Of a stretch of DNA of 64,000 bases, positions 3,451 to 64,000 are shown piece after piece. The position numbers and the translations under genes were made by a program. The stretch's first letter is position 1; the number at the start of each line of letters is the position of its first letter. The notes under the pieces were generated by a model. The model had not been told where the DNA came from, made no database searches, and saw only the letters and a list, made by a program, of their open reading frames with translations. Source of the DNA: an uncultured Chloroflexia bacterium (GTDB lineage Bacteria; Chloroflexota; Dehalococcoidia; GIF9; UBA5629). The stretch lies in assembly GCA_963784375.1 (NCBI GenBank), contig CAWAQY010000005.1, positions 11,896 through 75,895 on the forward strand, in the 5' to 3' direction.

Positions 3451-3505
3451 CTCTTGTAATTTAATGTTTTTACTTGGATCAATAATCTGTTTCTCAAGAA
3501 TTTAC

Positions 3506-5152: not shown

Positions 5153-5153
5153 A

Positions 5154-5930: not shown

Positions 5931-5958
5931 TTAAATCCTCGTCAGCTTATCCATAAAC

Positions 5959-7509: not shown

Positions 7510-9080
7510 AAAAATTCTTCACTCCCTGTTTGTTCAATTTCTCAAGTATTTTTGCGCGACGTTCAAGCAACGTATAGATTTGTCGTACCTTATGGGGGGG
7601 GATACCCATTTTGGGAGCTATCTTGTATTCCAGGAGATAGCTGTTATTATCACCTGTAAATTCGAACTTGTCTGTTACTGAATCCCACCTGAACACATCC
7701 ACGAACAAAAACGACTGTTTAGCTGCATCATACCCCACTATTTCACTGATGCTGAGCATTCTTCGCCCCATCTGGCCACCGGGTACTTTAACGGCGCTCT
7801 GTATGATTACCAGGTTAAGGTTGTCGATGTATGTCTTGGGGACATTGATAGGGTCGCCGGTAAGACGTTGAATGAGCCTTTCTACGGTAGCCGCGTGGAA
7901 CGTTGCCATACATGAATGTCCAGTCTGCATTGCCTGGAAGGCTATCGCCCCCTCGGATCCCCTGATTTCACCGATTATTATTTCGTTCGGCCTCTGCCTC
8001 AGGGCAGCTTTTAGAAGGTCGAACATGGTTACTGCGCCTGCTTCGCTGTCTTTTGTCGACCGTATTGTTTCTCTTATCCAGTTCTTGTGGGGTACTTGAA
8101 GCTCAGGGGTATCTTCTATGGAAACTATCTTGGCATTTGTTGGAATAAAAACGGTCACGGCGTTCAGCGTGGTTGTTTTTCCCGAAGCGGTCTCACCACA
8201 GACAAAGGTATTCATCCCCTCCCCCAGCATAATAGAGAGATATGCCGCCATCTGATAATTCAATGTTCCCATATCTATAAGCTCAAGAATCGAGAGGGGT
8301 GTTTCGCTGAATTTACGAATGGTAAAGTTAGAACCGCGTTTGGACACATCCCGACCATAGACAATATTTATTCTGGAACCGTCAGGGAGAGTTGCATCTA
8401 CGATAGGGCTATGGACACTTACCGGTTTCTTGATCCGTTCCGCCAATCTCATCACAAATGAATCCAGGTCTTCATTATCAGGGAAAACTGACTGCCGATT
8501 TCAGACTTTTAAAGATTTTGTGTTCTATAAATACAGACCCCATACCGCTGCAACTGATATCTTCAACATATTTGTCAGTCACTATTCCTTCCAGCATACC
8601 CATACCCAGTTTGTCTCTGACCATCATATACTTCAGGCTGCGTAATTGAGCAGGAGTTACCACCAGCGGTTTAATCTTGGAACGGAATGGCAACTTGTTC
8701 AGGAAACTGGTTGGCCTGTCTGTAGTAGTGACTACCAGGTCAATATTTTGAAGAATCCGTTTTCTCCGCTCTTCATCTGAAGCAATTGCCTTCAAATTGA
8801 GAAGCTCCGATATGTCGAGCAATCTTTTCTCAATTTCTATCATGAGCTTGTCCAGGTCCTCCCCGACGATCGGTTCTATCGGGATGTAGGTATCCCGGCC
8901 ATCATTACCGTCGTGGAGGATGTGGGTGAAGATACCACCTTTTACCGGGTAAATCAGGTTTGGATGTTTGCCACTCTTCGCCATTGACCTGTCCAATTTT
9001 TTATGAAACTGGGGGATACCATGTTCTTTTACAGGGATCATATTCAAATACCGCAAAAGGTGAGGGTTCTTCTGAACCAC
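7460..9080 (-). CDS. arlI: Archaellum assembly/motor ATPase ArlI/FlaI, one gene split by a 1-nt frame break at ~8478
   Basis: Carries Walker A GETASGKTT, Walker B/Asp box IIIGEIRGSEG and LPDGSRINIVYG. ORFs 8478..9080 and 7460..8455 join as ...KSAVSFP-DNEDLDSFVMRLAERI... if one base in ttccc(t)gataat is ignored. Confidence 0.85.
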
Positions 9081-9201
9081 TTCCTGGGCTTCTTTGGAAA
9101 GCAGGCTCAGTATGTCACAGGAATCCCCCTTTTTATTTTTGTTTGTATCCGTTGGAAACGGGATAAATCATTTTTGGCACAATATGTTCCCTCTCAATTT
9201 C

Positions 9202-9933
9202 TCAGGCCTGGGCTCTGCCCATCGGCATGATTCGCATCCCTAAACCGGGATCAACATCGAAGCTCAATACGTTACCGGTACTTTTCGCAGCCCCTCTAAC
9301 TTTGGATACCTCAAGTACCTTGACCAGTTTATCTCCAACTTCCTCTATGCGGAGCCGGAAATGGGCATCACATGCAGAGCGCAGACGTATTAATATCTGC
9401 TCATCGAATGCATAGGTATGAGCAATATTTATCAGAGTTTTTCCGTCATCACATATTTTCTTGCAATCTTCAAAATAGCTTAGAATCTGATCCTTGGTAG
9501 TATGGGCAATGACCGGCGTCAAGGAATCAACAACTATCACATCATAGCTTGGGAATGCCCGGACTCCCGATACAATGGTAGCAAAGGTATTCATCTGATC
9601 CATCTTGGATGCTTCGATTGTGAATATTTTCATCCAGCCGAGCAGTAAAGCATCAGTAATACCCAAACCCAGGCTTTCCATCTGCTTGTTCATACTTTTT
9701 ACCGTATTCTCAGCAGTAAATAATAGGACCCTGTGGTGACAGGAAAGAGCCCCATGCATAATTTGCTGTGCCACTACCGATTTGCCTGCATCTGACTCGC
9801 CTTCAATAAGGGTAAGGGAACCGACGGGTATTCCACCACCCATCTGCTTGTCAATTTCTCGCTGTCCGGTGCAGATCAGTTCCGCATGCTGTACTTCATT
9901 TTCCCCTTCATCAGCTATAGAAACTTTCATCAC
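9202..9933 (-). CDS. arlH: KaiC/RecA-like ATP-binding protein ArlH/FlaH
   Basis: 243 aa with Walker A GESDAGKS and a RecA-like fold pattern. It lies immediately upstream of arlI. Confidence 0.8.
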   Translation of the reverse strand: MMKVSIADEGENEVQHAELICTGQREIDKQMGGGIPVGSLTLIEGESDAGKSVVAQQIMHGALSCHHRVLLFTAENTVKSMNKQMESLGLGITDALLLGWMKIFTIEASKMDQMNTFATIVSGVRAFPSYDVIVVDSLTPVIAHTTKDQILSYFEDCKKICDDGKTLINIAHTYAFDEQILIRLRSACDAHFRLRIEEVGDKLVKVLEVSKVRGAAKSTGNVLSFDVDPGLGMRIMPMGRAQA

Positions 9934-9960
9934 TATTACCTTTACTTTTGCATTCTATTT

Positions 9961-10461
9961 TTATGGCGGTCCAAACGTTGCTTCAGCGCAAACCCCATTG
10001 GTGGTAGATATAGTTGCCAGATTAATAGTCTTACTTGCTACCGCAGGCGATAGTTTCAAAACAAGCTTCATAGTTTCATTGGGATTGAATATATTCGGCC
10101 CGTAAACCTCGGGTAGCCCATTGATATACAGACCGCCAAGTGTCCAGCCCGGAGTAGCCGCAGAATATGGCAACCGCTGGACGATGCCGCTCTGATATTT
10201 CACGATTACATCCCATTTTTCAAAATGAGCCAGGTCAGTTTGCCCGGCATTTTTAATGATTATTTCCGCTTGTGTTCCCGGTGCATTCGTCGTCGAGCTT
10301 ACATAAGTGATACTTGTGTTTCTTATTTCTCCTGCCGATGATTCGTAGTCTTTCCAGGCATATGAAAGAGTATCAATCGAATTAAACGAATGCATGGCAA
10401 TCGTGGCTCCTCCCACAATCAAAACCGTAATACTTATTAAAGCGATAAACACATTTTCCAT
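9961..10461 (-). CDS. arlG: ArlG/FlaG-like protein (N-terminal hydrophobic helix plus beta-rich domain)
   Basis: Start chosen at ATG 10461 (MENVFIALISITVLIVGGATIAM). Size and position between the ArlF-like gene and arlH fit. The F versus G assignment rests on synteny only. Confidence 0.55.
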   Translation of the reverse strand: MENVFIALISITVLIVGGATIAMHSFNSIDTLSYAWKDYESSAGEIRNTSITYVSSTTNAPGTQAEIIIKNAGQTDLAHFEKWDVIVKYQSGIVQRLPYSAATPGWTLGGLYINGLPEVYGPNIFNPNETMKLVLKLSPAVASKTINLATISTTNGVCAEATFGPP

Positions 10462-10468
10462 AGTATTC

Positions 10469-10930
10469 TCAAGAAGAGCTGTATAATTTCCAGTCTGATA
10501 TCCCATTGGGTATCACTAATTTGAAAAAATAGGTCCCTGATGGTGCCGACAGAAGATAAATAGTAATTTTTGTGGTCGCGGTTGGCCCCCATTTGGTATC
10601 ATTCTCGATAACGTAGTCCCAGTAAGGTTTCGTAGAGCCACCATAAATTATTCGGGCGAAATTTCCTTCCGGTCCCCAAAATATGTCACTGTTTTGAATT
10701 CCACCTATATTTGAAGTACCAACATTCTTTACCCATGCATATATCTTGTCACTATCTTTGGCTATTTCAATAATCTTAATTTGGCTTCTTATCCTATCGT
10801 CAATTTTGCCGGCTGCGTCGGTAATGGCTCCACTGGTTCCTGTAATTGCTGGATATGCCGCATTCATGATCACTACCGAACAAACAACCCCGGCAATAAG
10901 GAGCAGAAGCGTAACAACTACTTTATCCAT
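10469..10930 (-). CDS. arlF: ArlF/FlaF-like protein (N-terminal hydrophobic helix plus beta-rich domain)
   Basis: 153 aa starting MDKVVVTLLLLIAGVVCSVVIM. The archaellin-like N-terminal helix, size and position fit. The F versus G assignment rests on synteny only. Confidence 0.55.
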   Translation of the reverse strand: MDKVVVTLLLLIAGVVCSVVIMNAAYPAITGTSGAITDAAGKIDDRIRSQIKIIEIAKDSDKIYAWVKNVGTSNIGGIQNSDIFWGPEGNFARIIYGGSTKPYWDYVIENDTKWGPTATTKITIYLLSAPSGTYFFKLVIPNGISDWKLYSSS

Positions 10931-11300
10931 TACGAGAATCCTTCATCATAGAAATAATTGACAGAAGTGCATTATCTTGCTGCTTCGAATCTGATAGTAG
11001 ATTATCCAACTGAGCTAAAATAGATAGGTAGTCGCTCGCGGCTATCGGTTGAGAATTGGTAGACTCCTGGATTGAGAGCCGTGCCATTTTTATTAAGGCA
11101 TCTCTAAGGCTTTGTGGGAGACGCCCCATAGTGAATGATATTTCCACGAGTACTTCTGTACGTTCTTTCCCGAGCTTGGTTATTGCCTGGTCCAACCACT
11201 GGGTGAGACCTGCTATAACGACAAGGTCAACCTGCCTGTTACCGCTGCCAGTTTCCTGGTCATTTTTCTTTTCGCTGTTGGATACTGCCGACCTGGGCAA
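10923..11300 (-). CDS. ArlD/E (FlaD/E)-like protein. The true 5' end is possibly at ATG 11433, with a frame break near 11375-11385.
   Basis: The segment DLVVIAGLTQWLDQAITKLGKERTEVLVEISFTMGRLPQSLRDALIKMARL resembles the conserved FlaD/E domain core (..WLeFL...vG...l..vL.yY...GWIs). An upstream frame, MKQSIHRIWAHYETELKR..., could join by a 1-nt shift. Confidence 0.45.
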   Translation of the reverse strand: MPRSAVSNSEKKNDQETGSGNRQVDLVVIAGLTQWLDQAITKLGKERTEVLVEISFTMGRLPQSLRDALIKMARLSIQESTNSQPIAASDYLSILAQLDNLLSDSKQQDNALLSIISMMKDSRNG

Positions 11301-11457
11301 AATCCCTTCAGAATGATCCTCCTGTTTGGATGTTTCAGTCCTTAGGCCATATTCCTGCCGAGTCGTTTCGCGAGGGCATTCTCTTTAGTTCTGTTTCATA
11401 ATGTGCCCATATTCGGTGAATCGATTGTTTCATTCTGAATTCTTGAGTTATGTGCAC

Positions 11458-11778
11458 TTATCTCCCTTTGGGATTGATGCGATGAATTGCTGGATTTCGA
11501 TCGCTCGCTGTATCTGTTTCACTATATACATTCTCCGTATCTACGGGAGCGCTGTCTTCATCCTCGGAATCATCAGTATCCTGCTGCTCTCCTTTTTGTT
11601 CTAGATGCATTGCCTGATTTATCCCACCGGCACTGGGTACCATATTTTGATTGAAAGGGTTTTGAATATTAAGGTACTGTTCTCGTAAATCCAGAAGAAC
11701 TGCCTTGATCTCATTTTTTAATATTTTCAGTTCATCTTCCAATACCGTAATTCTTTGCTCGTCCTTCATGGCACTCAC
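11458..11778 (-). CDS. Coiled-coil protein with acidic tail, in the position of ArlC/D/E N-terminal regions
   Basis: 106 aa with the heptad-like segment RITVLEDELKILKNEIKAVLLDLREQYL followed by a D/E-rich tail. It lies between the archaellin and the ArlD/E-like gene. Confidence 0.4.
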   Translation of the reverse strand: MSAMKDEQRITVLEDELKILKNEIKAVLLDLREQYLNIQNPFNQNMVPSAGGINQAMHLEQKGEQQDTDDSEDEDSAPVDTENVYSETDTASDRNPAIHRINPKGR

Positions 11779-17646: not shown

Positions 17647-18567
17647 CTAAGCTCTTATACGTTCCAGAGCCATTTGCAGGTCTGAAGGCAATTCAGAGAT
17701 AAATTCTTTGTATTCTCCTGTAGATGGCAACCGGAAACCTAATCGGTAGGCATGTAAAAACTGACGTTTTAAGTGTACCGATTTTACTCCATACGTGATG
17801 TCTCCAATAACAGGATAGCCGATAGCGGAAAGATGAACCCGTATTTGATGGGTACGTCCTGTTTCAATAGTGATTTCAAGCAAAGTATACTTGCCAATAT
17901 ATTCTCTTACCTTATAAATAGTTTTTGCTTCTCTTCCTTTGCTCACAATAGCCATACGTTTTCTGTTTACCGGATGACGACCTATAGGAGCTTCAATAAT
18001 CCCTCGCGATGGTGTGACTTTACCTTTAACAAGAGCGATGTAGCCTTTGGAAACAGAATGTGTTTTAAACTGATTGATCAAATTTTGCTGTGCAGGGCCA
18101 TTTTTAGCAACGATCATAAGCCCGGAAGTATCCTTGTCCAGTCGATGCACGATGCCCGGACGTAAAGAAGCTCCAAAATTCGCTAACTCCGGGTACCGTG
18201 CTAACAGAGCATTGATCAGCGTATGGCTGGCGTGACCCGGGGCGGGATGAACAGTCAAACCGGCAGCTTTGTTCAAAACTATAACGTCGCTATCTTCGTA
18301 TATTATATCGAGGGGCATCGATTCGGCAACGAGTGAAGAGGTCTCGGGCGGAGGGAGGCTTATAAATATTTTATCCCCCCTCTCGAGTTTCTGGCTAACC
18401 TTGGCTTGTTGGCTATTAACCAGAATAAAGCCCTGCTCGATCATTTTTTTAATATAAGATCTTGATGTATCAGGGTGTCGCGAGGCCAGATATTTATCCA
18501 ACCGCGTTGTAGCTTCTGTAACCTGGATGGTTTCAGCTGATAGTTGAGGAGATATGTCCTTCTCCAT
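17647..18567 (-). CDS. rluD: 23S rRNA pseudouridine synthase, RluA/RluD family (S4 domain plus catalytic domain)
   Basis: Contains RLDKYL (S4), the HRLDKDTSGL catalytic motif and GRTHQIRVH. Confidence 0.85.
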   Translation of the reverse strand: MEKDISPQLSAETIQVTEATTRLDKYLASRHPDTSRSYIKKMIEQGFILVNSQQAKVSQKLERGDKIFISLPPPETSSLVAESMPLDIIYEDSDVIVLNKAAGLTVHPAPGHASHTLINALLARYPELANFGASLRPGIVHRLDKDTSGLMIVAKNGPAQQNLINQFKTHSVSKGYIALVKGKVTPSRGIIEAPIGRHPVNRKRMAIVSKGREAKTIYKVREYIGKYTLLEITIETGRTHQIRVHLSAIGYPVIGDITYGVKSVHLKRQFLHAYRLGFRLPSTGEYKEFISELPSDLQMALERIRA

Positions 18568-19025
18568 TTTTTAAACCCATAATCAAGGTAAATAGCGAGC
18601 ACAATCACTCCAATGCTGATAGAAGAATCGGCAATATTAAAAGCAGGCCAATACACGTCCCCCCAGAGCCTGACATAAATAAAATCTGTAACATGACCAA
18701 TGAGAATACGGTCGATCAGGTTACCTAGAGCACCTCCAAAAACTAAACCCAATGCGACACTACTCAGAATGCTGGTTCTTGGAAGGTAACGGAAAAAAAA
18801 TAAAATTACTACCAACCCTACAATAGCGATAAAAGTGAGTAAAAATGCTTTGTCTGTAAACAACCCGAATGCTGCACCGGTATTTCCAATATGGGTAATA
18901 ATGAGAGGACCGATTTCAGGTAGCGATTCTCCGGGTAATAGATTTGTCCTTATCCATGACTTAGTAATTTGATCAGCAGCGACTACAATAACAGCAATAA
19001 GCAGAAAGGCCCATTTTTTCCACAC
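18441..19025 (-). CDS. lspA: Lipoprotein signal peptidase II
   Basis: Contains NTGAAFG, GGALGNLIDR and FNIADSSISIG. The 3' tail overlaps rluD by 127 nt and may be an artefact of an indel in an A6 run near 18560. Confidence 0.85.
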   Translation of the reverse strand: MWKKWAFLLIAVIVVAADQITKSWIRTNLLPGESLPEIGPLIITHIGNTGAAFGLFTDKAFLLTFIAIVGLVVILFFFRYLPRTSILSSVALGLVFGGALGNLIDRILIGHVTDFIYVRLWGDVYWPAFNIADSSISIGVIVLAIYLDYGFKKWRRTYLLNYQLKPSRLQKLQRGWINIWPRDTLIHQDLILKK

Positions 19026-44438: not shown

Positions 44439-45543
44439 TACCTGTCTATCTCTCCCATACAAATATCGATGCTGCCAAAAGTCAGTATTAAGTCGGCAAT
44501 TTTCCAGCCGATGACCATATCACGAAAAGCAGTAAGATTAATCAATTCAGAAGAGCGGACATGCAAACGGTAAGGAGCAATGGAATTGTCGCTCACAATA
44601 TAGAATCCAAGTTCTCCCTTGGGGGCTTCAATGCGCGTATAAACCTCACCCGCAGGCGGATGCAGCAACGCCGGCACATCAGCGCAGATTGAACCTTTGC
44701 CGGCAACTGGGCAATCGCCTGTTCCAGTATTCTGAGGCTTTGCTGCATTTCCAGTATTTTAATCCAGTAACGGTCATAGCAGTCGCCGGCAGCCCCGACC
44801 GGCACATCAAAAGTGAACCTATCATAAATCGAATAGGGATCGGCTTTACGCAAATCCCATTTGACGCCGCTGGCCCGCAGAACCGGTCCGCTGGCACCGC
44901 TATTAATTGCCAGGTCCTTGGGTAAAATACCTACACCCTTGCACCTTGCCAGCAAAATCTCATTCCCCGATAAAAACTGGTTGTATTCCTTGATAAACTG
45001 CGGCATTTCGGCCATGAATTTTTTCAAGGCCGGCAAAAAATCGTCCGGTATGTCGTGGCTCACCCCGCCAATACGCATATAGTTATAGAGAAGCCTCTGG
45101 CCGCAAACCATCTCAAATAAATCGACAATTTTCTCCCTCTCACGCCACATATAAAGGACCGGAGTCATCATGGCTCCCATATCGTTGAGCATAAACCCTA
45201 CGCCCATCAGATGGCTGGAAATGCGCATCATTTCGGCTATGATAATCCTCAAATATTCAGCTCGTTCCGGAACCTTTATCCCGGCCAGTTTTTCCACGGC
45301 AAGCACATAAGCAAAATTATTCGTCATCGAGGCTACATAATCCAGCCTGTCAGTCAATGGAATAATCTGGGTATACGTTCTTCCTTCAGCCAGCTTCTCG
45401 ATGCCGCGGTGGAGGTAACCGAAAATGGGTTCGACATCAACAACAACTTCGCCATCAAGTGTAACTCTCATTCGAAACACACCATGGGTCGAAGGGTGCT
45501 GCGGCCCCATATTGAGTATCATAGGCTGAGTTTTCAATGGCAT
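44438..45543 (-). CDS. nuoD: NADH-quinone oxidoreductase subunit D, frame break ~44680-44700
   Basis: The N-terminus [20 protein letters not shown] (ORF 44593..45543) joins a C-terminus in ORF 44438..44677 (..[10 protein letters not shown]...[11 protein letters not shown]). Confidence 0.9.
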
Positions 45544-47120: not shown

Positions 47121-48160
<1,040 letters not shown>

Positions 48161-51362: not shown

Positions 51363-53757
51363 TTACCTTCCAGGTATCCTTTGATTTTCTCCCGTCCCAG
51401 AGCCAGCTGCTTGAGCCTCAGCTTCCGATATAGACACAGGTACGGTAACTTTGTCCCGCAGCTTGCCGTTCACCTGAATAATCAGCGGAACTTCATCTTC
51501 TCTGGCCAGGTCTTCGTCCCATTGAGGCCACTGCTGATTATGAATGCTGTACGAATAACCGGTTAAAGTCCACAGCTCTTCAGTCATATGAGGAGCCGAA
51601 GGCGCCAGGAGCAACAACAAATCTTTTATCGCTTCCTTCCAGGTTGCTTCTGATACATTGCTTTCTTCCTCTATTTTAGCCAGATAATTGGTAAATTCCA
51701 TAAGTGCCGCCAGCATGGTATTGAAGCGGAACCGTTCCATATCCTCCGTTGCTTTCCTGATAGTCTTGTGTATAAATCGCTTGAGCTCTTTTTCAGCGTC
51801 AGGGCTGACGGTTTTAGGTGAGTAATCAGCTACTGCCAGATTCCAAACACGGTTCAGCCAGCGGTTCATTCCGACAATGCCATTATCATTCCATTCCCCG
51901 CCCTGTTCCCAGGGACCCACGAACATCAGATAGACACGGACTGTATCAGCCCCCAGTTCGCCCACATAGGTATCCGGCGTCACCACATTGCCTTTGGACT
52001 TGCTCATCTTATCGCCTTTGTAGATGATCAGACCCTGATTAAATAGTTTGGTGAAAGGTTCACCAAATTGAACTATCCCGATATCCCGTATCGCCTTGGT
52101 AAAAAAGCGGGCGTAGAGAAGGTGCATGTTCGCATGTTCTGCGCCACCGGTATACAGGTCCACCGGCATCCAGAACTTCATTTTTTCCTTATCAAAAGGA
52201 TAAGTATCATGATGGGGCTGGTGTAACGCAGAAAATACCATGAGGAGCACATGAAAGTATCCATGGTATCTGTCTCACGCTGTGCTGGTGACGAGCATTT
52301 TGGACAGGTTGTGTTAACGAACGACTCACAATACTTCAACGGTGATTCTCCGGTCGGTTTAAACTCCGCATCAGGGGGCAGCAGAACGGGGAGGTCCTTC
52401 TCCGGCACCGGTACAATGCCGCATTTCTCACAATAAATCATCGGGATCGGCGCACCCCAGTAACGCTGGCGGGAAATGAGCCAGTCACGTATTCGGTAGG
52501 TGGTCGCCCGTTTGCCCCAGCCTTTCGCTTCCATAAAATCGCAGATTGCACCAAAAGCTTTATCGTTCGGCATACCGTTAAATTGCCCTGAATTGACCAT
52601 AGTGCCAGACTCAACCCAGGCAGCTATCAAGCTCTTTGCCATCCCATTCCGGCGGAGCAATGACCACCCGGATGGGAAGGTTGTACTTTTTAGCGAATTC
52701 AAAATCCCGCTGGTCATGTGCCGGAACCGCCATCACCGCGCCGGTACCATAGCTGGGTAACACATAGTCAGCAATCCAGATAGGTACTTTTTCTCCATTT
52801 ACCCGGTTTATGACATAGCTTCCCAGGAAAACTCCAGTCTTCTCTTTCTCAACCGAAGTTCTCTCAATCTCGGTTTGCCGCAAGGTCTGGTAGATGTACT
52901 TTTCTACCTCAGCTTTTCGCTCGGTGTGGTGAGCCTGGCCACCAGAGGATGCTCCGGAGCCATTACAAAAAAGGTGACTCCAAAAATAGTGTCGGGACGG
53001 GTGGTAAATACTCTGATTTCCTTTTCTTCGTACGCCCTTGTGTTCCAATCCAAAGGACAGGTCAGCGCCAACGCTTTTCCCTATCCAGTTTTTCTGCATT
53101 ATCTTGATACGTTCAGGCCAGTCTATCTGTGCTGTGGTCCAATAATTCTTCGGCGTAGTTGGTGATGCGGAAAAACCATTGTTCAAGCGATTTTCTGACT
53201 ACCGGAGTATCACAACGTTCGCAGGATCCATCGTCCACAACCTGTTCATTGGCCAGCACCGTCTGGCATTTGGAGCACCAGTTCACCGGCGCTTTAGCCC
53301 GGTATGCCAGGCCTGCTTCATAGAGTTTGAGAAAAAACCACTGCGTCCACTTATAATATTCGGGTACACAGGTAATAACCTCCCGGCTCCAATCATACGT
53401 TGCGCCAATGGTCTTAAGCTGTTTACGCATATTTTCGATATTGTTCATTGTCCAGGTATAAGGATGAATACCGCGGCTTATGGCAGCATTTTCTGCGGGC
53501 AGCCCGAAAGCATCAAATCCTATGGGATGAAGCACGTTGAAACCCTGCATCCGCCTGAACCTTGCCTGAACATCTGAAGGGGCCATTGCATACCAGTGCC
53601 CGATATGAAGGTCTCCTGAAGTATAGGGAAACATGGTCAAAGCATAAAATTTAGGGCGGGGATCATCCTCTTTAACTTCGTATAAGTGGTCATCCGCCCA
53701 TTTTTTCTGCCATTTTTTCTCAATTTCCTGGGGATTGTATTTAAGAGCAGTTTTCAT
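51363..53757 (-). CDS. leuS: Leucyl-tRNA synthetase, about five frame breaks
   Basis: Contains [13 protein letters not shown] (HIGH) and KMSKSKGN (KMSKS). Four overlapping ORFs (53113..53757, 52611..53186, 52178..52717, 51363..52250) assemble into one protein. A compensated pair of shifts hides [36 protein letters not shown] between ~53030 and ~52925. Confidence 0.9.
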
Positions 53758-56433: not shown

Positions 56434-56592
56434 CAAACAACATCTGCGGCAAAGTGAGTTATATGGGTATGCAACAAGTTCTTTCCCACACTTTGTTTTC
56501 AATTTTTTTGTGCTCCCCAGGGCATCCTGCCCTGGGGAGTACTGGCTCATACCTTCGATTCAGGTATACAGGTTGAGATAAATGACATATGG

Positions 56593-56752
56593 TTAAAACA
56601 GTCTGAATACCTTTCTTAGCAGCCAGATAATTATGAGAATAACTGCAATAACAAGTGCGATATAGATCAGCCAGCCCAAAGAGGGAAGAGCTACTAAACC
56701 CAACAGCCACAAAACTAAGAGAATAATACCGATAAGTTAATAAAATATCCAT
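56593..56752 (-). CDS. Small membrane protein (lmo0937-like two-helix type), copy 1, one frame break near the 5' end
   Basis: ATG 56752 gives MDILLT, then after a +1 shift IGIILLVLWLLGLVALPSLGWLIYIALVIAVILIIIWLLRKVFRLF* (hand translation). Confidence 0.45.
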
Positions 56753-56834
56753 AACTACCTCCTTTTTAATTAGTAGACTTTTAAGTTGAAATCCTTGTTA
56801 GATGGTCCGGTCTTCATTTAGAGGTTTTGTTGCA

Positions 56835-57011
56835 CTATAGACTTTTCAGCCAACTCGTTTTATTTTTTTCCTTGAACTCTTTCAGGGGCTTGTAATCCTT
56901 GATAATTTCTTTGATAGCATCCTCGTTGTTTTTCTTGTTGTGTTCGATTCTGTAAACCTCCACAATCTTATCCTCTTCATCAGATAATTCGATTTGAACT
57001 CTTACTGTCAT
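56835..57011 (-). CDS. 58-aa ribbon-helix-helix/DUF2683-like small protein, copy 1 (below the ORF-track cutoff)
   Basis: ATG 57011 follows AAAGGAGG and gives MTVRVQIELSDEEDKIVEVYRIEHNKKNNEDAIKEIIKDYKPLKEFKEKNKTSWLKSL. The beta-strand-then-helix pattern resembles archaeal DUF2683 / RHH antitoxin-like proteins. Assignment by eye. Confidence 0.45.
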   Translation of the reverse strand: MTVRVQIELSDEEDKIVEVYRIEHNKKNNEDAIKEIIKDYKPLKEFKEKNKTSWLKSL

Positions 57012-57111
57012 GCTATTTGCCTCCTTTAATTACTACTGGAAAATGATAGCAACATGACCATAGAATAGTTATATAATCGGGTTGGTGTGTATTAAATTCT
57101 TATGACATTTA
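56979..57111. repeat. Repeat copy 1 (5' end, SD and upstream region of the RHH-like gene), homologous to 58005..58141
   Basis: Aligned by eye: atcagataattcgatttg..ccatagaatagt..ataatcgg..cttatgacattta is shared by both copies. Confidence 0.65.
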
Positions 57112-57148
57112 AGATGCCTGAGTGCTATTCTGAACACTCAGGCATCTT
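57111..57148. other. Perfect 14-bp stem-loop
   Basis: AAGATGCCTGAGTG-ctattctgaa-CACTCAGGCATCTT. There is no clear U-tract on either strand. It lies between small-membrane copy 2 and RHH copy 1. Confidence 0.35.
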
Positions 57149-57257
57149 GTTAGATTCAGATCTGTACCACTTGGGATTCTAAATTTTCCGAACCATTCTG
57201 TTACAAGTCAGGATGGACACTATAGTATCAGCGGTATCCGTTATAGTGGCGTAAAGG

Positions 57258-57411
57258 TTAAAAAAGTCTGAACACTCTTCTTAGCAGCCAGATTATGACG
57301 AGAATAACCGCAATAACAAGTGCATCATCAACCACACTGTGGTATTGCGATAAAACCCGACCGGAGCCATAAAACCAGAAGAATGATGCCAATAGTCAGT
57401 AAGATGTTCAT
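57258..57411 (-). CDS. Small membrane protein (lmo0937-like), copy 2, frame-disrupted
   Basis: MNILLTIGIILLVLWL... continues after shifts as ...VVDDALVIAVILVIIWLLRRVFRLF*. The 3' end is near-identical to copy 1. Confidence 0.4.
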
Positions 57412-57470
57412 GCAATGGCTCCTTAATTAGTAATAAAGATTTTGACAGTTTTGTTGATACTTTCGACGCG

Positions 57471-58039
57471 GTTAAACGTTCCAGCCAGATCTTGTTTTTC
57501 CTCAATCATCGTGCTAAGAGCTTGTACATGCTTGATATGTCTTTGATGGCTCCTCATTGTTCTTCTTATTGTGTTCGATCCGTATCCCGTACTACCTTAT
57601 CACTCTTCGGATGCATCCTGGATGGCGCTGGTGGTTATGGTAGATCATGTGACCTACTATGACGATGCGAACAAGCGATTTATTGGCTGACAGCACTGAC
57701 CGGTCTGTATTGAGCAAACGGGAGCGTTATTGAGAATCACTCTGGCTGGCAAACGAGCAACTCAAAGGGGTTAGGCAAATGAATGTTTAAATGATACTGT
57801 GGTTCTCATCGATGTAGTATTGAAGGTAAATCCGTGCAGATTAGCGCATGCACGATCAAAGCTTCTCTGAATAGTGGGTTCGGTCCTGGCCATAGGCCAA
57901 ACCGCCGAATTACAATTCAGGAACCTTTCTATAAAGTTCGAGGTCTAGACGGCCGGTATCGGGTGCTGTATCTCGGTCAATGTAGACTAAGCTGTGTCTG
58001 CATTATCAGATAATTCGATTTGTACTTTTACTGTTACAT
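57471..58039 (-). pseudogene. Second copy of the RHH-like gene, split by a ~400-bp insertion (57608..58004) with a damaged start
   Basis: 57471-57607 aligns with the 3' two-thirds of copy 1, and 58005-58039 aligns with its first codons (..VKVQIELSD). The start region reads ATGTAA. Confidence 0.4.
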
Positions 58040-58141
58040 ATACCGTTTATCTCCTGCAATTTATTCTGAGAAAATGTTAGCATTATGCCCATAGAATAGT
58101 CGTATAATCGGACAGGGATGTATGAATACTTATGACATTTA
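58005..58141. repeat. Repeat copy 2 of the RHH-gene 5' region (see 56979..57111)
   Basis: Alignment by eye. Confidence 0.65.
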
Positions 58142-58247
58142 CCGGTTATGTTTGCTCGATTGCTGAAATAGACTACTCTGAAGCGTTTACCTGGAGAAAA
58201 ACACAAGACTATACGCAAACTGCAAATACCCGTCTGTCACCGTCAAG

Positions 58248-58469
58248 TTATTTCTTCTGCAGTTCATCCTTTTGAATTTTTAGGATCACTTTGTCGCCTA
58301 TTGTCATTATCTTGTCCAACTTAATCTCATATTTTTTTGTTAGTCCTGCGGCCACGATTACATGGTTTATTGCACTGTTAACCATATCAACATCGATGTC
58401 GGTCACTCTGCCTATATTATTACCTTGTGCATCTATGACTTCTTTGTTGAATAATTTCTTGGCGTTCAT
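58248..58469 (-). CDS. Small PRC-barrel domain protein
   Basis: 73 aa: KEVIDAQGNNIGRVTDIDVDMVNSAINHVIV...IMTIGDKVIL is a typical stand-alone PRC-barrel pattern. Confidence 0.65.
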   Translation of the reverse strand: MNAKKLFNKEVIDAQGNNIGRVTDIDVDMVNSAINHVIVAAGLTKKYEIKLDKIMTIGDKVILKIQKDELQKK

Positions 58470-58526: not shown

Positions 58527-59130
58527 TTAAGGCGATGCCATAACGACCTGCCAATAGGCCCATCCCCAGTCGTTTACAGCCTCCAACCTGTACAGTTTAG
58601 TTTGTCCTGAGGGTACTGTGACCACTGTGCTTCCTGTTGGGTTAACCGGACCTATGTCGGGCTGGATGACTATCTGCGTGGCATTTGATACATCCCAGTT
58701 AAGTTGCCACGCAAGTACCTCCGCGGTGGCTGGCGGTGAAGTTGATGACAGGATTACTGGCTGTAGATTGTGGCGGTGGCGCTGGCGTTGAGACGATAAT
58801 AATCGCCGATGATCTGATGACAGTACCAGCAGAGTTGGTGGCACTTATAGTATAAACGGTGGATTTAGACGGTGATATTACCCTGGTGCCTACAACATCA
58901 ACCTGACCTATACCCTGGTCTATACTTACCGATGTAGCTCCAGTCACATTCCACAACAGAGTTGACGTGCCACCGGAATTAATCGTAGCTGGATTATTGC
59001 TAAATTCTATGATAACCGGTGGCGTTCCTACCGGTAGGATAGGATTTGGTGACGGGGCTGGAAATGTAAAACAACCCGGGATGAGAATCAGTAATAGTAG
59101 TGATAGAGAAAGAAAAACAAACCTTTTCAA
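58527..59130 (-). CDS. Lipoprotein-family paralog A: shared 5' module plus a second Ig-like domain. One frame break ~58750-58840.
   Basis: TTG 59130 lies 7 nt after GGAGGT and gives MKRFVFLSLSLLLLILIPGC, then ..GGTSTLLWNVTGATSVSIDQGIGQV..VYTISATNSAGTV... The C-terminal part, in ORF 58527..58844, reads ..LAWQLNWDVSNATQIVIQPDIGPV..LYRLEAVNDWG... Confidence 0.65.
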
Positions 59131-59319
59131 TGTAGTTACCTCCTAAATTTTATTGCCTGTGACATTGACATGTCCTTAGCCTTTTGTTTGTTAATAGTAT
59201 GGTAGATACACGCTCACTAATGGCGGAGCTGAAAATGTAAAACCCGGTTAAATTTGCAACTACTATTAAAGTCGACTTTACGGCCTTTAACAGCAGCAGC
59301 AAATTTAGATTCCCCCAAC

Positions 59320-60014
59320 CTACTCATGCGGAAATATACCTTCTAATTTGTCGGGCTCCAGCATGTGATTTGAAAGTCGATTTGAGCTCGATACCGCATC
59401 ATTGGGCGTGAGCACATGGAGGCGTTGCCATCCAGAAACCTTCCCCACGTGTCCATTGGTTAGTGACGGTCTGCGAACCAGCGGCAATGAAGGTGATAAC
59501 CCCCGGAGAAGGTAGCACCATCGCTTCTCTCCCACCGGTAAGTAACTATACCAGGACCGTTGGCGGCGATAGTTCCCCAAAAGTTAATGGTTTTGGGACA
59601 AGGACCGGTGAATGGGTACTGATCAACACCCACAATGACGCCAGTCACCGACAAACGGGGAGTAGGTGCTGAGGTTGACCGTAGTCACCGCTGATCTGGT
59701 AACGGTACCAGCAGAGTTGGTAGCACTTATGGTATAGACAGTGGATGCAGCCGGTGATACTACCATGGTACCCGCAGCATCAACCAGACCTATGCCCTGG
59801 TCTATGCTCACCGAGTTAGCTCCAGTCACATTCCACAACAGAGTTGACGTGCCACCGGGATTAATCGCAGATGGATTACTGCTAAAAGTCTCCAATAACC
59901 GAAGGCGTTCCTACCGGCTGGGCAGTCGCTGGTGCGCGGGATTTGAAATGTAAAACAACCCGGGATGAGAATCAGTAGTAGTAGTGATAGAGAAAGAAAA
60001 ACAAACCTTTTCAA
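59320..60014 (-). CDS. Lipoprotein-family paralog B: shared 5' module plus an NGPGxVTYxWE domain. About four frame breaks.
   Basis: TTG 60014 follows GGAGGT. It is pieced together from ORFs 59826..60029, 59623..59895, 59460..59654 and 59320..59580 (..TINFWGTIAANGPGIVTYRWERSDG....LHVLTPNDAVSSS..). Confidence 0.5.
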
Positions 60015-60110
60015 TGTAGTTACCTCCAAAAATATATTGCCTGCGACATCGACATGTCCTTATCTTTGTATGTTAACAGTTGTCTTAAAACTTCTTATAC
60101 GTCACAATAA

Positions 60111-60774
60111 TTAGGGCCCACAGGTTGTGTAATTTGTCGAATTCGATACTATATCATTGGGAGTCAAAACGTGGACTCGATACGAACCGGAAGGCAATGC
60201 ACTCATTTCCACCGGTAATGTTATTTTTTGTGTACCGGCTGTGGGAAATGTGATATTCCAGGTATAACTATATCCGCCGCCATCGGTTGATTCCCAGATG
60301 TAAGTAACTGTGCCGGGACCATTGGCAGTGATAATTAAGCGTAAAGGTTGAAACAACCGGTGAAGGTTGATGGCTCAGTATTGGCCATAACACTGGTTAC
60401 CGCGAATGAGGTCGGAGCAGGGTGAGGGTGCGATGCTGAGTTGACCGTAGTCACCGCTGATCTGGTAACGGTACCAGCAGAGTTGGTAGCACTTATTGTA
60501 TAAACAGTGGATGTAGCCGGTGATACTACCCTGGTCCCCGCAACATTAACCTGACCTATACCCTGGTCTATACTCACCGAGTTAGCTCCGGTCACATTCC
60601 ACAACAGAGTTGACGTGCCACCGGAATTAATCGTAGATGGATTACTGCTAAAGGTTCCAATAACCGAAGGCGTTCCTACCGGTGGAACAGGCTTGGCGGG
60701 TTTGAACTGTAATACAACCCGGGATGAGAATCGAGTAGTAGTAGTGATAGAGAAAGAAAAACTAATTTTTTCAA
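60111..60774 (-). CDS. Lipoprotein-family paralog C: shared 5' module plus an NGPGxVTYxWE domain. At least three frame breaks, including one inside the signal peptide.
   Basis: TTG 60774 follows GGAGGT. The signal-peptide codons carry one extra base at 60733. The Ig module is in ORF 60335..60604. The C-terminal domain (ITANGPGTVTYIWESTDGG...YRVHVLTPNDIVSNS..C) is in ORF 60111..60356. Confidence 0.5.
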
Positions 60775-61037
60775 TGTAGTTACCTCCAAAAATATATTGC
60801 CTGCGACATCGACACGTCCTTAATCTTTGTATTGTTAACAGTTGCCTAAAACTTCTTATACATTACGTCAAATACTCTAACCTCTTCTTAAACCTTTTCT
60901 TATTGATTGCTGCCTGTTATTGAGACGTGTCAGTCACTAATAGCAATTACAAAAATCTTATCATTCGAGATATGGATTAGTAATATAATAAGAAGGCAGA
61001 AAGTTAAATAGTTATGATATTTTGACGAAGGAGCAGG
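60775..61037. repeat. Conserved ~263-bp upstream leader/promoter region of paralog C, near-identical to 63234..63495
   Basis: Aligned by eye base by base. There are only scattered substitutions and 1-2 nt indels over ~260 bp. Shorter versions (first ~40-90 bp) precede paralogs A, B and D. Confidence 0.75.
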
Positions 61038-61052
61038 CTCTGGTCTCAGTCG

Positions 61053-61104
61053 TTAAAACAGAAATAGGTGGGGAATCGTGCCAGGATATCCTCACCTATT
61101 TCTG
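61053..61104 (-). terminator. Putative intrinsic terminator downstream of paralog D
   Basis: On the minus strand the 12-bp stem CAGAAATAGGTG...CACCTATTTCTG (22-nt loop) is followed by TTTT. It lies 65 nt after the stop at 61169. Confidence 0.4.
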
Positions 61105-61168
61105 ATCCAAGTCAGAGGGGGTTTTAAAGTTCCCATAGACTTATGGGGCAGATATAATTTATTTAACT

Positions 61169-62128
61169 TTAAGGCATAGTATATTTTATTGTTAGAGTCG
61201 CATTGCTAAAGCACAGCATATCTGCCACACTATCCCAGTCAGTAGATGAATAGAATTGGATCATGAACTGACTGCGAGTCTGGCCTGTTTGAACCAATGT
61301 CTGTATCACTGATTCTCCAGCTTCAGCATTCTTCACATCCCATGCCCACGGAGACAGAGGGTAATTGATGATACTGCCGTTTTCGGTGAGTTTCGCTGTG
61401 CGGTTCCACCAAACTATGGATGTAATGGTATCAGTATCAGAAAGTTTACCGTACTGATGATGATAGACTTTCATAGGCACCCATGCCACCGTACATGGTT
61501 TCATAGGTGGGGTTGCCTGTCTTGGTATAGTTACTTAAATCCAATATCGCTTCTTGTATCACTGCGGTCTGGGGAATTGCAGAGATATCGAAACTAAGGA
61601 AAGCCCTGCTTTCCGAATTGCTTGAGTTATCACCGATGCACGCAGTGTTCTTAGTAGTAGTGTATATTGCTTGACCTGTACCCTGAGACATAGCCTTAAC
61701 CATAGAGCCAGACTCGTTACTCATTGCAGATAGTGTAACGCTCATTACACCATTGATAATTGGTGGTGATGGCGGTAGCGGTGCTGAGTTGACCAGTAGT
61801 CATCGATGATCTGGTAACGGTACCAGCAGAGTTGGTAGCACTTATGGTATACACAGTGGATGTAGCCGGTGATACTACCCTGGTACCCGCAACATCAACC
61901 TGACCTATACCCTGGTCTATACTCACCGAGTTAGCTCCAGTAACATTCCACAACAGAGTTGATGTGCCACCGGAATTAATCGCAGATGGATTACTGCTAA
62001 AGGTTCCAATAACCGAAGGCTGTCCTACCGGTGGGATAGGATTTGGTGCCGGGGTTTGAAATGTAAAACAACCCGGGATGAGAATCAAGTAGTAGTAGTG
62101 ATAGAGAAAGAAAAACTAATCTTTTCAA
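61169..62128 (-). CDS. Lipoprotein-family paralog D: shared 5' module plus a DNRLRE-like C-terminal domain. At least three frame breaks, including one inside the signal peptide.
   Basis: TTG 62128 follows GGAGGT. There is an extra base at ~62087 in the signal-peptide codons. The rest is in ORFs 61717..62088, 61446..61745 (..ESRAFLSFDISAIPQTAVIQEAILDLSNY..) and 61169..61504. Confidence 0.55.
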
Positions 62129-62194
62129 TGTAGTTACCTCCAAAAATATATTGCCTGCGACATCGACATGTCCTTACTCTTAAAGACTATAGGG

Positions 62195-62224
62195 TCAGGA
62201 CGCCGGGTAAACCCGGCGTCCTGA
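62195..62224 (-). terminator. Perfect GC-rich hairpin downstream of paralog E
   Basis: CAGGACGCCGGG-taaa-CCCGGCGTCCTG lies 75 nt after the stop at 62299. The U-tract is weak. Confidence 0.4.
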
Positions 62225-62298
62225 AACCATAATTTATTTCTACACATTGGCGTTACAGAGAAGAACTTAAATTCTGCATACCCAGTAGGATGTGGTTC

Positions 62299-63233
62299 TT
62301 AAGGCAAATGGTACTTAACCGTCAATATGGCTTGGTCAAAGCACAGCATATCTGGTACACCGTCCCAGTTAGTGGACGTGAAAAATTGAATCCTTAACTG
62401 AAACTCTCGGCTGCCCGGCTATGACTAATCCCTGGACACTGAGTTTTCCGCTAACAGGATCCTTGATTTCTAAGTTCCAGGGCGAGAGCGGATAGTCGGT
62501 TATTTCGCCCGAGGCCACCAGCTCCCCCGGTCTGTTATAGGCAAATGTATCGAGATCTTCATATGTACCATACTGGTACCTGTAAATCTCCAGCGCTCCA
62601 AAGTTGCCATACTGGGGGCCGTTGACTGGATCCGTATATGTCGGGTTACCAGTCGTCGTATACCCGCCTATATTCAGGGAAACCTCGTCTATCATTGCAT
62701 TGCTGGGTATCGACGAAATGTCGAAGCTTAAAAAAGCGCGGCTTGCCATGCCGCCACCAGTATCCCCAACACAGACAGAATGTGACTTGGTATAGTCCAT
62801 ACCGCTCTTGATTATTGACCCACTTTCACCTGGAATAATACCAACGATGATACCGGTTCCTGGTGTAGGCGATGAGGGTGATGGTGGTGCTGAGTTGACC
62901 AGTAGTCGTCGCTGATCTGGTAACGGTACCAGTAGAGTTGGTAGCACTGATAGTATAAACAGTGGATGCAGTCGGTGATACTACCCTGGTCCCCGCAACA
63001 TCAACCCGGCCTATTCCCTGGTCTATACTCACCGAGTTAGCTCCGGTAACATTCCACGACAGGGTTGACGTGCCACCGGAATTAATCGCAGATGGATTGT
63101 TGCTAAAGTCTCCAATAACTGGTGGTGTTCCTATCGGTAGGAAAGGATTTGATGCCTGGGGTTGAACTGTAATACAACCCGGGATGAGAACCAATAGTAG
63201 TAGTGATAGAGAAAGAAAAACGAACCTTTTCAA
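62299..63233 (-). CDS. Lipoprotein-family paralog E: shared 5' module plus a DNRLRE-like C-terminal domain. Two frame breaks.
   Basis: TTG 63233 follows GGAGGT and gives MKRFVFLSLSLLLLVLIPGC. The rest is in ORFs 62826..63248 and 62369..62947 (..ASRAFLSFDISSIPSNAMIDEVSLNIGGY..). The last 32 aa (RIQFFTSTNWDGVPDMLCFDQAILTVKYHLP*) are in a third frame by hand translation. Confidence 0.6.
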
Positions 63234-63495
63234 TGTAGTTACCTCCAAAAATTTATTGCCTGCGACATCGACACGTCCTTAATCTTTGTATTGTTAATAG
63301 TTGTCTAAACTTCTTATACATTACGTTAAATACTCTAACCTCTTCTTAAACCTGTTCTTATTGATTGCTGCCTGATATTGAGACGTGTCAGTCACTAGTA
63401 GCAATTACAAAAATCTTATCATTCGAGATGTGGATTAGTAATATAATAACAAGGCAGAACGTTAAATAGTTATGATATTGTCACGAAGGAGCAGG
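63234..63495. repeat. Conserved ~262-bp upstream leader/promoter region of paralog E (pair of 60775..61037)
   Basis: See 60775..61037. Confidence 0.75.
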
Positions 63496-63591
63496 TTTAC
63501 TGCACCACCAAAGGTCAATCGCCTCTCCATAGTGACCTCGAAGTCGGGGTGTATGACATTCCCCACGAAAATAATCAGACTGCTTACATCG

Positions 63592-64000
63592 CTATTGTAC
63601 TGTAACAGTAACTGTTCTAGTCACCGAGCCAGCACTGTTGGTAGCAGTAAGCGTGTAAGTCGTGGTAGCTGTTAGCAGGACCAACATCTACCCCGAACTG
63701 AGACGCAGGACCGATCCCTTGATCAATGGTAACTGACGTTGGGTTTCCCTGTATGTTGTATGCTAAATGGGAATATTGCCCTGAACTAATAGTAGACGGG
63801 GCTGCGGTGAAGCTAACTATCACCGGTAGGCTTCCCGTGCCTATGGTAACAGTTACCTGAGCTGTCACTGAGCCATAACTGTTGCTGGCAGTGAGCGTAT
63901 AGGTGGTGGTTGCTGTAGGATTCACCGTTATCGTTCCAGATGTGGTGCGGAACGGTAATGCCCTGAATAGACACCGTAGTCGCCCCCGTAACCGACCATG
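63592..64000 (-). CDS. Tandem Ig-like-domain secreted protein. The 5' end lies beyond the window and there are at least two frame breaks.
   Basis: ORF 63617..63925 plus hand translation give ..WSVTGATTVSIQGITVP..TSGTITVNPTATTTYTLTASNSYGSVTAQVTVTI..VSFTAAPSTISSGQ..DQGIGP..TATTTYTLTATNSAGSVTRTVTVTVQ* with stop TAG at 63592-63594. Confidence 0.55.

Follow-up and report, generated by a model that had tools for sequence, protein, structure and literature searches.

A tandem array of modular, probable surface-lipoprotein genes from an uncultured Dehalococcoidia bacterium, with a shared 5' module and differing heads

How should neighbouring genes be read when they begin almost alike, end differently and are all broken in frame? 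Such genes lie at the end of a 64,000-nt stretch of DNA from an uncultured Dehalococcoidia bacterium (GIF9; UBA5629; assembly GCA_963784375.1, contig CAWAQY010000005.1, positions 11,896-75,895), hereafter the window. Positions 58527-64000 carry, on the minus strand, five genes (A to E) and one partial gene (F) arranged head to tail in the order F-E-D-C-B-A. An initial annotation of this DNA took the array for a recombining cassette family of surface proteins and suggested surface variation as one role. Our analysis indicates that the array is likely the distal part of an accessory locus encoding a modular surface-lipoprotein family, in which exchange, reassortment and consensus-error frame breaks account for what is seen.

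The common part of the genes was delineated by aligning the five units with MAFFT. A module of about 90% identity spans from at least 45 nt upstream of the start codon to about 335-345 nt inside each gene; beyond it, in the linker following an immunoglobulin (Ig)-like domain, identity falls below 50%. The module ends near 58783 (A), 59667 (B), 60432 (C), 61778 (D) and 62883 (E). Pairwise nucleotide identity among the copies was 85.1-93.9% (mean 88.7%), or 23-54 differences in 376 positions, and the array as a whole comprises five repeats of about 430 nt at 85-94% identity inside 5 kb. Each copy encodes a signal peptide with the motif LIPGC, a Pro-rich linker and one Ig-like domain. The protein begins with M-K-R/K followed by FVFLSLSLLLL(I/V)L, a K/R-containing n-region ahead of an uncharged h-region, as read directly in A, B and E and after frame repair in C and D. 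Translation would start at a TTG placed 7 nt after GGAGGT, and five such minus-strand sites are present, with TTG at 59130 (A), 60014 (B), 60774 (C), 62128 (D) and 63233 (E). The head-to-tail layout, the TTG spacing and a 5' module of roughly 85-95% identity had all been proposed beforehand and were borne out, with the qualifier that A to E are each frame-broken. The peptide strings quoted at that time were stitched across reading frames.

Downstream of the module, local hidden Markov models (HMMs) recovered the same three classes of distal domain, or head, that had been described. Gene A (58527-59198 including a 70-nt proximal upstream motif; module 59130 to about 58783) pairs the Ig domain with a second, Ig-like "A-head". 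Genes B (59343-60109 with a 95-nt partial upstream element; probable stop TAG at 59345-59343) and C (60111-60774; module 60774 to about 60432) each carry one Cys-bracketed, PKD/HYR-like domain, here termed class ii. Genes D (61169-62181 with a 53-nt proximal upstream motif; module 62128 to about 61778) and E (62299-63233; module 63233 to about 62883) end in DNRLRE-like heads, of a second type in D and DNRLRE/CBM96-like in E. A gene at 1-1173, also on the minus strand, resolved as Ig-Ig-class ii. This distant relative runs off the window start, has a canonical LMGGC lipobox and an extra N-terminal domain, and contains one frameshift.

Several features point to export. LIPGC fits the Gram-positive lipoprotein pattern G+LPPv3, which permits Pro at -2 (PMC13068155). 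A lipobox of this kind was found in 104 of 120 homologues, with variants such as LVAGC, LITGC and SLSGC; in homologues Pro at -2 can be replaced by A, T or S, and position -1 is occupied by G, S or A. The window also contains the signal peptidase II gene lspA (18441-19025, minus strand; Pfam Peptidase_A8, E 3.8e-36), whose product is required for the processing of lipoprotein precursors. The family products are probably exported, lipid-anchored cell-surface proteins, and the earlier proposal of a paralogous exported family with a conserved export/stalk module and alternative distal domains is supported.

The family is large. A search with the stitched gene E product found 772 proteins, many of them intact, 308-324 amino acids (aa) long and 73-84% identical over full length; the named relatives among these matches come from Dehalococcoidia or Chloroflexi metagenome-assembled genomes. 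The product is 84% identical to the intact protein P0001 and 75-79% identical over 100% of the length to P0018, P0023 and P0030. Neither Pfam nor NCBIfam gave an above-threshold domain in any stitched product. The E head matched NCBIfam DNRLRE_dom (NF033679) at E 9e-6 and 25.6-25.8 bits, below the cut-off of 34, and Pfam CBM96 (PF24517) at 17.6 bits, below the cut-off of 26; the D and E matches span positions 14-154 of the 164 in the DNRLRE profile.

Structure prediction, proposed as a check on the heads, was carried out for the E and C types. The AlphaFold model of an E-type orthologue consists of an Ig domain and a larger beta-sandwich (mean predicted local distance difference test, pLDDT, 73.7, with loops below 50). 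Its best Protein Data Bank (PDB) matches were a chondroitin-sulphate carbohydrate-binding module (CBM; 8wab; TM-score normalised to target, TMt, 0.59; E 4e-5) and the alginate-binding CBM96 7vbo (TMt 0.46, probability 1.00, the model pLDDT being only 73.7). The C-type model (pLDDT 89) forms two tandem Ig-like sandwiches. The class-ii domain is about 95 aa long, with an Ig fold, bracketing cysteines and a G-P-G-T-V-T-Y-x-W-E motif, and it occurs in 1-24 copies per protein among 214 representative relatives. Annotations on these relatives include PKD (P0123 and P0137) and 23 copies of HYR_4C in P0143; the direct Pfam matches were PKD at E 0.0085 and 16.5 bits (cut-off 23.5) and PKD_4 at 19.2 bits (cut-off 27). 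From the models and the class-ii relatives, all three heads therefore appear to be beta-sandwich, binding-type modules on a lipid-anchored stalk. The DNRLRE/CBM96-like head is likely a glycan binder, as predicted from its modelled fold.

Homology extends upstream of the start codon. A 45-nt proximal box, TAAGGAC(A/G)TGTCGATGTCGCAGGCAATATATTTTTGGAGGTAACTACATTG, is common to A to E; in gene E it reads TAAGGACGTGTCGATGTCGCAGGCAATAAATTTTTGGAGGT and contains a promoter-like AGGACG-18-TAAATT together with a Shine-Dalgarno sequence. Each of the five copies has its own promoter-like site of the form AGGACR-18-TATATT (in gene D AGGACA-18-TATATT at 62174-62145), its own Shine-Dalgarno sequence and its own TTG. 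Before gene E the box is part of a noncoding element of about 290 nt (63234-63519, minus strand; full-length nhmmer match 63519-63231) that also precedes many genes in relatives and is conserved in the contigs L001 to L007. A second full copy, 95% identical, precedes gene C (60775-61063, minus strand; nhmmer 61063-60772, E 2.5e-101), and partial copies lie before B (60012-60109, nhmmer), D (62126-62181) and A (59128-59198). According to nhmmer, copies are full, distal-only or proximal-only, and all lie on the same strand upstream of family genes; in L002 the proximal box is found, in addition, before a single gene from outside the family, PRC-DUF1508. Between genomes the element is conserved at about 80-95%, even where the coding module is only 72-78% identical.

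The element contains tandem TAAGAARAGGTT and TGTCGN (TGTCGA/TGTCGC) repeats, and the repeats of the upstream region include TGTCGATGTCGC besides TAAGAARAGGTT. It holds no open reading frame (ORF) in any frame, and an Rfam scan of 56-64 kb returned nothing real. An RNA-structure reading is unsupported because RNAalifold gave a weak fold whose covariation term was positive and which lacked valid compensatory changes. In a sigma-70 consensus scan, sites were no more numerous than in shuffled sequence, and the promoter argument is solely the conserved position of AGGACR-18-TATATT. Of the family genes examined, from the window and from L001 to L008, nearly all keep the rare TTG start and its exact spacing from GGAGGT; one L004 copy appears to begin at ATG. 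Our reading is that the element is a putative promoter, operator or leader region.

Relatives place the array in a wider locus. We fetched three contigs, L001 (820 kb, from the Joint Genome Institute, JGI), L002 (25 kb, also JGI) and L003 (NCBI GCA_049694415.1), all of which carry intact family genes with the same TTG start, upstream box and heads. Among the genome and metagenome contigs scanned, no relative came closer than 82-84%. Genes A, C, D and E have clear orthologues in relatives. For example, gene A corresponds to L002 11121-11942 (two Ig domains) and to a gene in L005, gene D to the intact L002 6008-6964, and gene C to the intact L003 4464-5108 (91% nucleotide identity). The head of gene B is orthologous to the second class-ii domain of two-domain genes (BB) in L002 and L003. 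Gene order and domain counts vary between genomes: L002 has D, BB, E and A, L003 has BB, E and C, L001 has E and an Ig-less C, and family genes in L004 and L007 have one to four Ig domains. Synteny between L003 and the window runs through the array, a small gene, a zincin-like gene and leuS.

Directly upstream of the arrays in L002 (3239-5638), L005 (976-3362) and L011 (3-1875) are genes for an OmpR-type response regulator and a PAS histidine kinase, and the kinase alone is visible at the array start in L003 (1-980) and L025 (3-158). The array-adjacent kinase shows 78-85% protein identity, and its synonymous divergence (dS), measured for L003, L005 and L011, is 0.3-0.5. The corresponding DNA, upstream of gene F, falls outside the window, which ends before the position of this two-component system. 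In relatives the locus also holds dodecin, PRC-DUF1508 and a 58-aa gene; PRC-DUF1508 genes lie inside or beside it in L002, L005, L011 and L023, while in L001 the distance to a PRC gene is about 5 kb.

Having these relatives, we compared the histories of modules and heads. In a neighbour-joining tree of modules, bootstrap support of 100% unites the D-type and E-type modules of L002 as sisters, and the E-type modules, which come from four genomes, are polyphyletic. The module of gene E in the window is about 90% identical to those of window genes C and D, versus 80-85% to that of any E orthologue. Among 30 proteins, one E module subtype is 70% identical to D modules versus 64% to the other E subtype. 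Identity between E and D heads is just 43-45%, and each head class forms a stable orthologue group across genomes. As the L002 D and E modules are sisters and E modules are polyphyletic, the module has been decoupled from the head by recombination. Module and head trees disagree, and on evolutionary time scales the 5' module has been reassorted or homogenised between heads. Support for recent conversion within the window array is weak: a Sawyer-type runs test for conversion tracts in A to E singled out only the pair A-D (P = 0.004 before correction for 10 tests).

Divergence between genomes suggests a second form of mobility. Family genes differ from those of relatives by dS of 0.09-0.59, whereas leuS, clpB and dnaJ on the same contigs are saturated (proportion of synonymous differences, pS, 0.80-0.85). 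Between the window and L002 or L003, family genes share 84-91% nucleotide identity (dS 0.16-0.46), versus 75% for leuS, 70% for clpB and 63.5% for dnaJ. Low dS is common to module and head, and is likewise found in the 58-aa gene (0.25-0.48), which resembles ribbon-helix-helix (RHH) proteins, in dodecin, in the two-component genes and in the small genes of the locus. Codon bias does not account for the low dS, the effective number of codons (ENC) being 52-54 in the family versus 54-57 in housekeeping genes. G+C content at third codon positions (GC3) of the family is around 0.45 (about 0.41-0.52 across all hosts), with host genes at 0.43 in the window, 0.53-0.63 in L003 and 0.73-0.82 in L001. 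Judged from synonymous divergence, the family is apparently much younger than the genomes carrying it. Because family dS is low and housekeeping genes are saturated, the simplest reading is that the locus, or parts of it, has been exchanged horizontally among divergent Dehalococcoidia.

L001 provides a possible instance of such exchange. A low-GC3 island (2137-11530; GC3 0.36-0.52 versus 0.73-0.82 in the host) lies between tRNA-Val and mutS and encodes a DpnII-like endonuclease, a methyltransferase and a ResIII helicase (restriction-modification), along with the E-type and C-type family genes. A second copy of the mutS 3' end, 93% identical (9331-9690), flanks the island, which looks like foreign DNA inserted by recombination. 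Given its low GC3, tRNA neighbour and duplicated mutS 3' end, the island is compatible with a circular intermediate integrated by a single crossover. We further entertain, tentatively, the idea that family genes are expression-ready mobile cassettes in which the element of about 290 nt and the signal-peptide/Ig module offer portable homology for swapping. If true, homologous recombination would swap heads or whole genes within arrays and between Dehalococcoidia lineages otherwise too diverged to recombine, and a surface-protein gene pool would be shared across lineages.

What, then, do the frame breaks mean? All six genes are frame-broken. By tblastn with intact orthologues, none of A to E has an intact ORF; the genes fall into 2 (A), at least 6 (B), 4 (C), 4 (D) and 3 (E) frame segments, with at least 14 frameshifts in total. 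These lie near 58712 in A, near 60733, 60700 and 60337 in C, near 62087, 61796 and 61475 in D, and near 62900 and 62405 in E; B has at least five. The changes are mostly +1 insertions outside homopolymers, plus two 2-nt deletions. D and E share an insertion at one site, where both read ACTACTGGTC, and C and D share the same 2-nt deletion in a Leu-codon (CTA/CTN) tract of the signal-peptide region. Assembly error, pseudogenisation and phase-off copies had been offered as causes, and the first, in the form of consensus error, fits best.

Breaks are not confined to the array. leuS (51363-53757), 5 kb away, is split into four ORFs bearing successive parts of the tRNA-synthetase profiles, with three single-base indels in 1.1 kb relative to L003; rsmD (47121-47637) breaks off at profile position 105 of 182, and nuoD (44593-45543) appears truncated at profile position 162 of 271. 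clpB and dnaJ show no frameshifting indels versus L002 and, like nuoH/L, are untruncated in Pfam scans. Consensus quality is thus uneven along the window. Once repaired, the family genes contain no nonsense codon in 1,250 codons, and the ratio of nonsynonymous to synonymous divergence (dN/dS) of window copies versus orthologues, 0.25-0.5, equals that of intact-intact pairs. Relatives show both ACTACT-GTC and ACTAC-GGTC alleles at the D/E insertion site, and the shared ACTACTGGTC looks like a merger of two real alleles, as from a consensus of mixed reads. Since leuS and rsmD are similarly broken, nonsense codons are absent and dN/dS resembles that of intact pairs, we conclude with good confidence that the frame breaks come from consensus errors, which cluster at sites differing among paralogues or strains. 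For the D/E lesion, programmed +1 frameshifting at ACU-ACU-GGU was also considered and rejected, leuS being hit by the same indel types; we know of no slippery motif of this form.

The strongest competing account is that the array is decaying or switched off, with real mutations, some of them spread by conversion, leaving most copies as pseudogenes or truncated Ig-only lipoproteins. The sheer number of frameshifts in A to E, the lesions shared by D and E and by C and D, and a break density about three times that of leuS, with none in clpB and dnaJ, would all suit such decay. Yet essential leuS and rsmD bear the same lesion type, the repaired genes lack nonsense codons and evolve at the dN/dS of intact orthologues, and the shared lesion sites coincide with positions that vary among paralogues and orthologues, as with the ACTACT-GTC and ACTAC-GGTC alleles and the window's ACTACTGGTC. 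We consider decay improbable.

Programmed phase variation or cassette switching of the Mycoplasma vsp/vlp/vpma or Neisseria opa/pilS type, with the breaks as OFF states, would explain a tandem family with conserved 5' and variable 3' ends, and the CTA/CTN tract where C and D go out of frame would suit it. However, the tract is trinucleotide and varies only in frame among relatives, and most frameshifts lie outside any repeat. Heads are conserved as orthologue groups between genomes, and no copy lacks a promoter-like box, a Shine-Dalgarno sequence or a start codon of its own. Pfam detected no invertase, reverse transcriptase, recombinase or integrase in the scanned ORFs (most of at least 90 aa) of the 14 kb downstream of the array, 44-58.5 kb, in agreement with what had been noted, and no inverted repeats flank promoters in the array. 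As every copy has its own expression signals and no recombinase is visible, silent-cassette switching does not describe this array, and we rate programmed switching as very unlikely. Two related systems fare no better. The conserved part lies at the 5' end of the genes and includes expression signals, with 3' ends unconserved between classes, unlike an attC/integron layout; the repeats are whole 5' modules rather than the template/variable pairs of a diversity-generating retroelement, and no reverse transcriptase occurs in the scanned ORFs. The recombining-cassette proposal therefore stands for module/head reassortment over evolution and not for active switching, and an active surface-variation system is not supported, given the separate expression signals, the stable heads, the lack of a recombinase in the scanned ORFs and the weak runs test.

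Least likely of all is that near-identical 5' modules were collapsed or mis-joined, giving a wrong copy number or order, for although five such similar repeats lie close together in a region with consensus errors, their 23-54 differences are resolvable, every head has an intact orthologue elsewhere, independent assemblies carry arrays of 2-5 such genes, and the junction of gene E, hairpin and next gene recurs in L001.

Several points weigh against the picture of exchanged, reassorted surface lipoproteins with consensus-error breaks. Break density is uneven: the array has at least 14 in about 4 kb, leuS has 3 over 2.4 kb, and clpB plus dnaJ have none over 3.4 kb. Lesions at identical sites (the D/E insertion and the C/D deletion) are not predicted by random error, and so call for context- or polymorphism-driven consensus error or for real mutations spread by conversion. 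The frame-break reading draws on the assembly consensus, with the nearest relative found at 82-84%. Pro at -2 of LIPGC fails a strict PROSITE-type lipobox core, which excludes Pro at that position, and lipidation is predicted from sequence. The DNRLRE and PKD assignments score below curated cut-offs. Finally, the short metagenome contigs L002 and L003 may contain a chimeric join.

On the reading we favour, each gene would be a self-contained expression unit composed of the 45-nt or 290-nt box, GGAGGT, TTG, signal peptide, linker, Ig domain and head. LspA would cleave the signal peptide, and the Cys of LIPGC would be lipidated. Heads may then be held away from the membrane as ligand- or envelope-binding modules. 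The shared upstream box could co-regulate the genes, possibly through the OmpR-type two-component system found beside the locus in relatives.

Smaller features of the array and its surroundings complete the description. A GC-rich hairpin (62188-62231, minus strand), an inverted repeat between E and D, is probably the terminator of gene E and recurs after the E-type gene in L001 (11010-11050). The spacer between B and A contains a stretch (59221-59247, minus strand) resembling lipobox and post-lipobox coding sequence, which had been called a relic. Its match to post-lipobox sequence exceeds chance (20 of 23 positions at 59221-59243; chance expectation 0 matches), but its origin as a lipobox is ambiguous because it sits within a 3' flank also conserved after the orthologous L003 gene, where the sequence is unlike a lipobox. 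Gene F (63592-64000, minus strand; stop TAG at 63594-63592) consists of the Ig-like repeats that form the C-terminus of a larger protein related to the family, matched by IgN local HMM pieces at 63940-63845, 63826-63668 and 63672-63598, with at least one frame break; its 5' end lies beyond the window edge.

Directly downstream of gene A is a PRC-barrel gene (58248-58469; 73 aa). Further along, the RHH-like 58-aa gene (56835-57011, minus strand) has tblastn matches in L002, L003, L005, L016 and L023. Together with a 52-aa membrane protein it forms a small-gene module that also follows arrays in relatives. The region 56500-58200 contains degenerate direct repeats, which suggests two or three decayed copies of this module. 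Elsewhere in the window, archaellum-type genes occupy 5959-10930 on the minus strand, including an FlaI-like T2SSE ATPase (7460-8455) and an archaeal-flagellin-like ORF (10469-10930); archaellum clusters in Chloroflexota are already known (PMC12488501).

Among described systems, the closest kind is the upstream homology box (UHB)/Erp type of paralogous lipoprotein family in Borrelia. The Borrelia burgdorferi UHB and Erp (OspE/F-related) lipoprotein paralogues were reportedly described by Marconi (1996) and Akins (1999). As here, these are paralogous surface lipoproteins with a conserved upstream region and leader but unrelated mature classes, with recombination among members and horizontally mobile DNA. 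There is no sequence relationship, and the conserved part here also includes a whole Ig domain. The present genes are chromosomal, tandem and two-component-linked, whereas those of Borrelia lie on prophage plasmids. Because the host is a free-living environmental bacterium, unlike Borrelia, immune evasion is not the driver here. References on the UHB/Erp system are listed in PMC10016077.

The variable surface lipoprotein families Vsp, Vlp and Vpma of Mycoplasma (PMC9025108) also consist of tandem genes with a conserved 5' end and variable remainder. They are further removed because they use dedicated switching machinery, namely site-specific inversion at a single expression site or repeat slippage in promoter or coding sequence. 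In the array, by contrast, all copies are expression-ready, no recombinase was seen and heads are folded domains conserved across genomes. Bacteroidota SusE/F-like surface glycan-binding proteins (SGBPs) share a lipid-anchored N-terminus, Ig-like spacers and a distal carbohydrate-binding beta-sandwich, and an SGBP structure (PDB 7kwc) was among the fold matches. Those are outer-membrane lipoproteins of polysaccharide utilisation loci with SusC/SusD; no such context exists here, and the likeness is one of layout alone. Compared with DNRLRE/CBM96 families (PMC2447325, PMC9971899), the D and E heads have their own conserved Cys pair and no associated enzyme domain. PKD/HYR-like relatives (HYR_4C, PF23237) contain up to 24 tandem copies, whereas here the domain occurs once or twice, terminally, in small lipoproteins.

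We came across no account of this family in our literature search. The Dehalococcoidia, most of them uncultured, abound in sediments, aquifers and peat; to our knowledge, almost nothing is known of their cell-surface proteins. Being large, with shared expression signals and glycan-binding-like heads, the family is a concrete candidate for attaching to or sensing polymers. It also illustrates that consensus errors concentrate in paralogous, strain-variable loci, where they can be mistaken for pseudogenisation or phase variation. Most worth following are the cross-lineage exchange and the conserved noncoding element. The low dS of the family against saturated housekeeping genes points to surface functions being passed between deep lineages by gene flow, and has a bearing on the spread of accessory surface functions in these uncultured populations.

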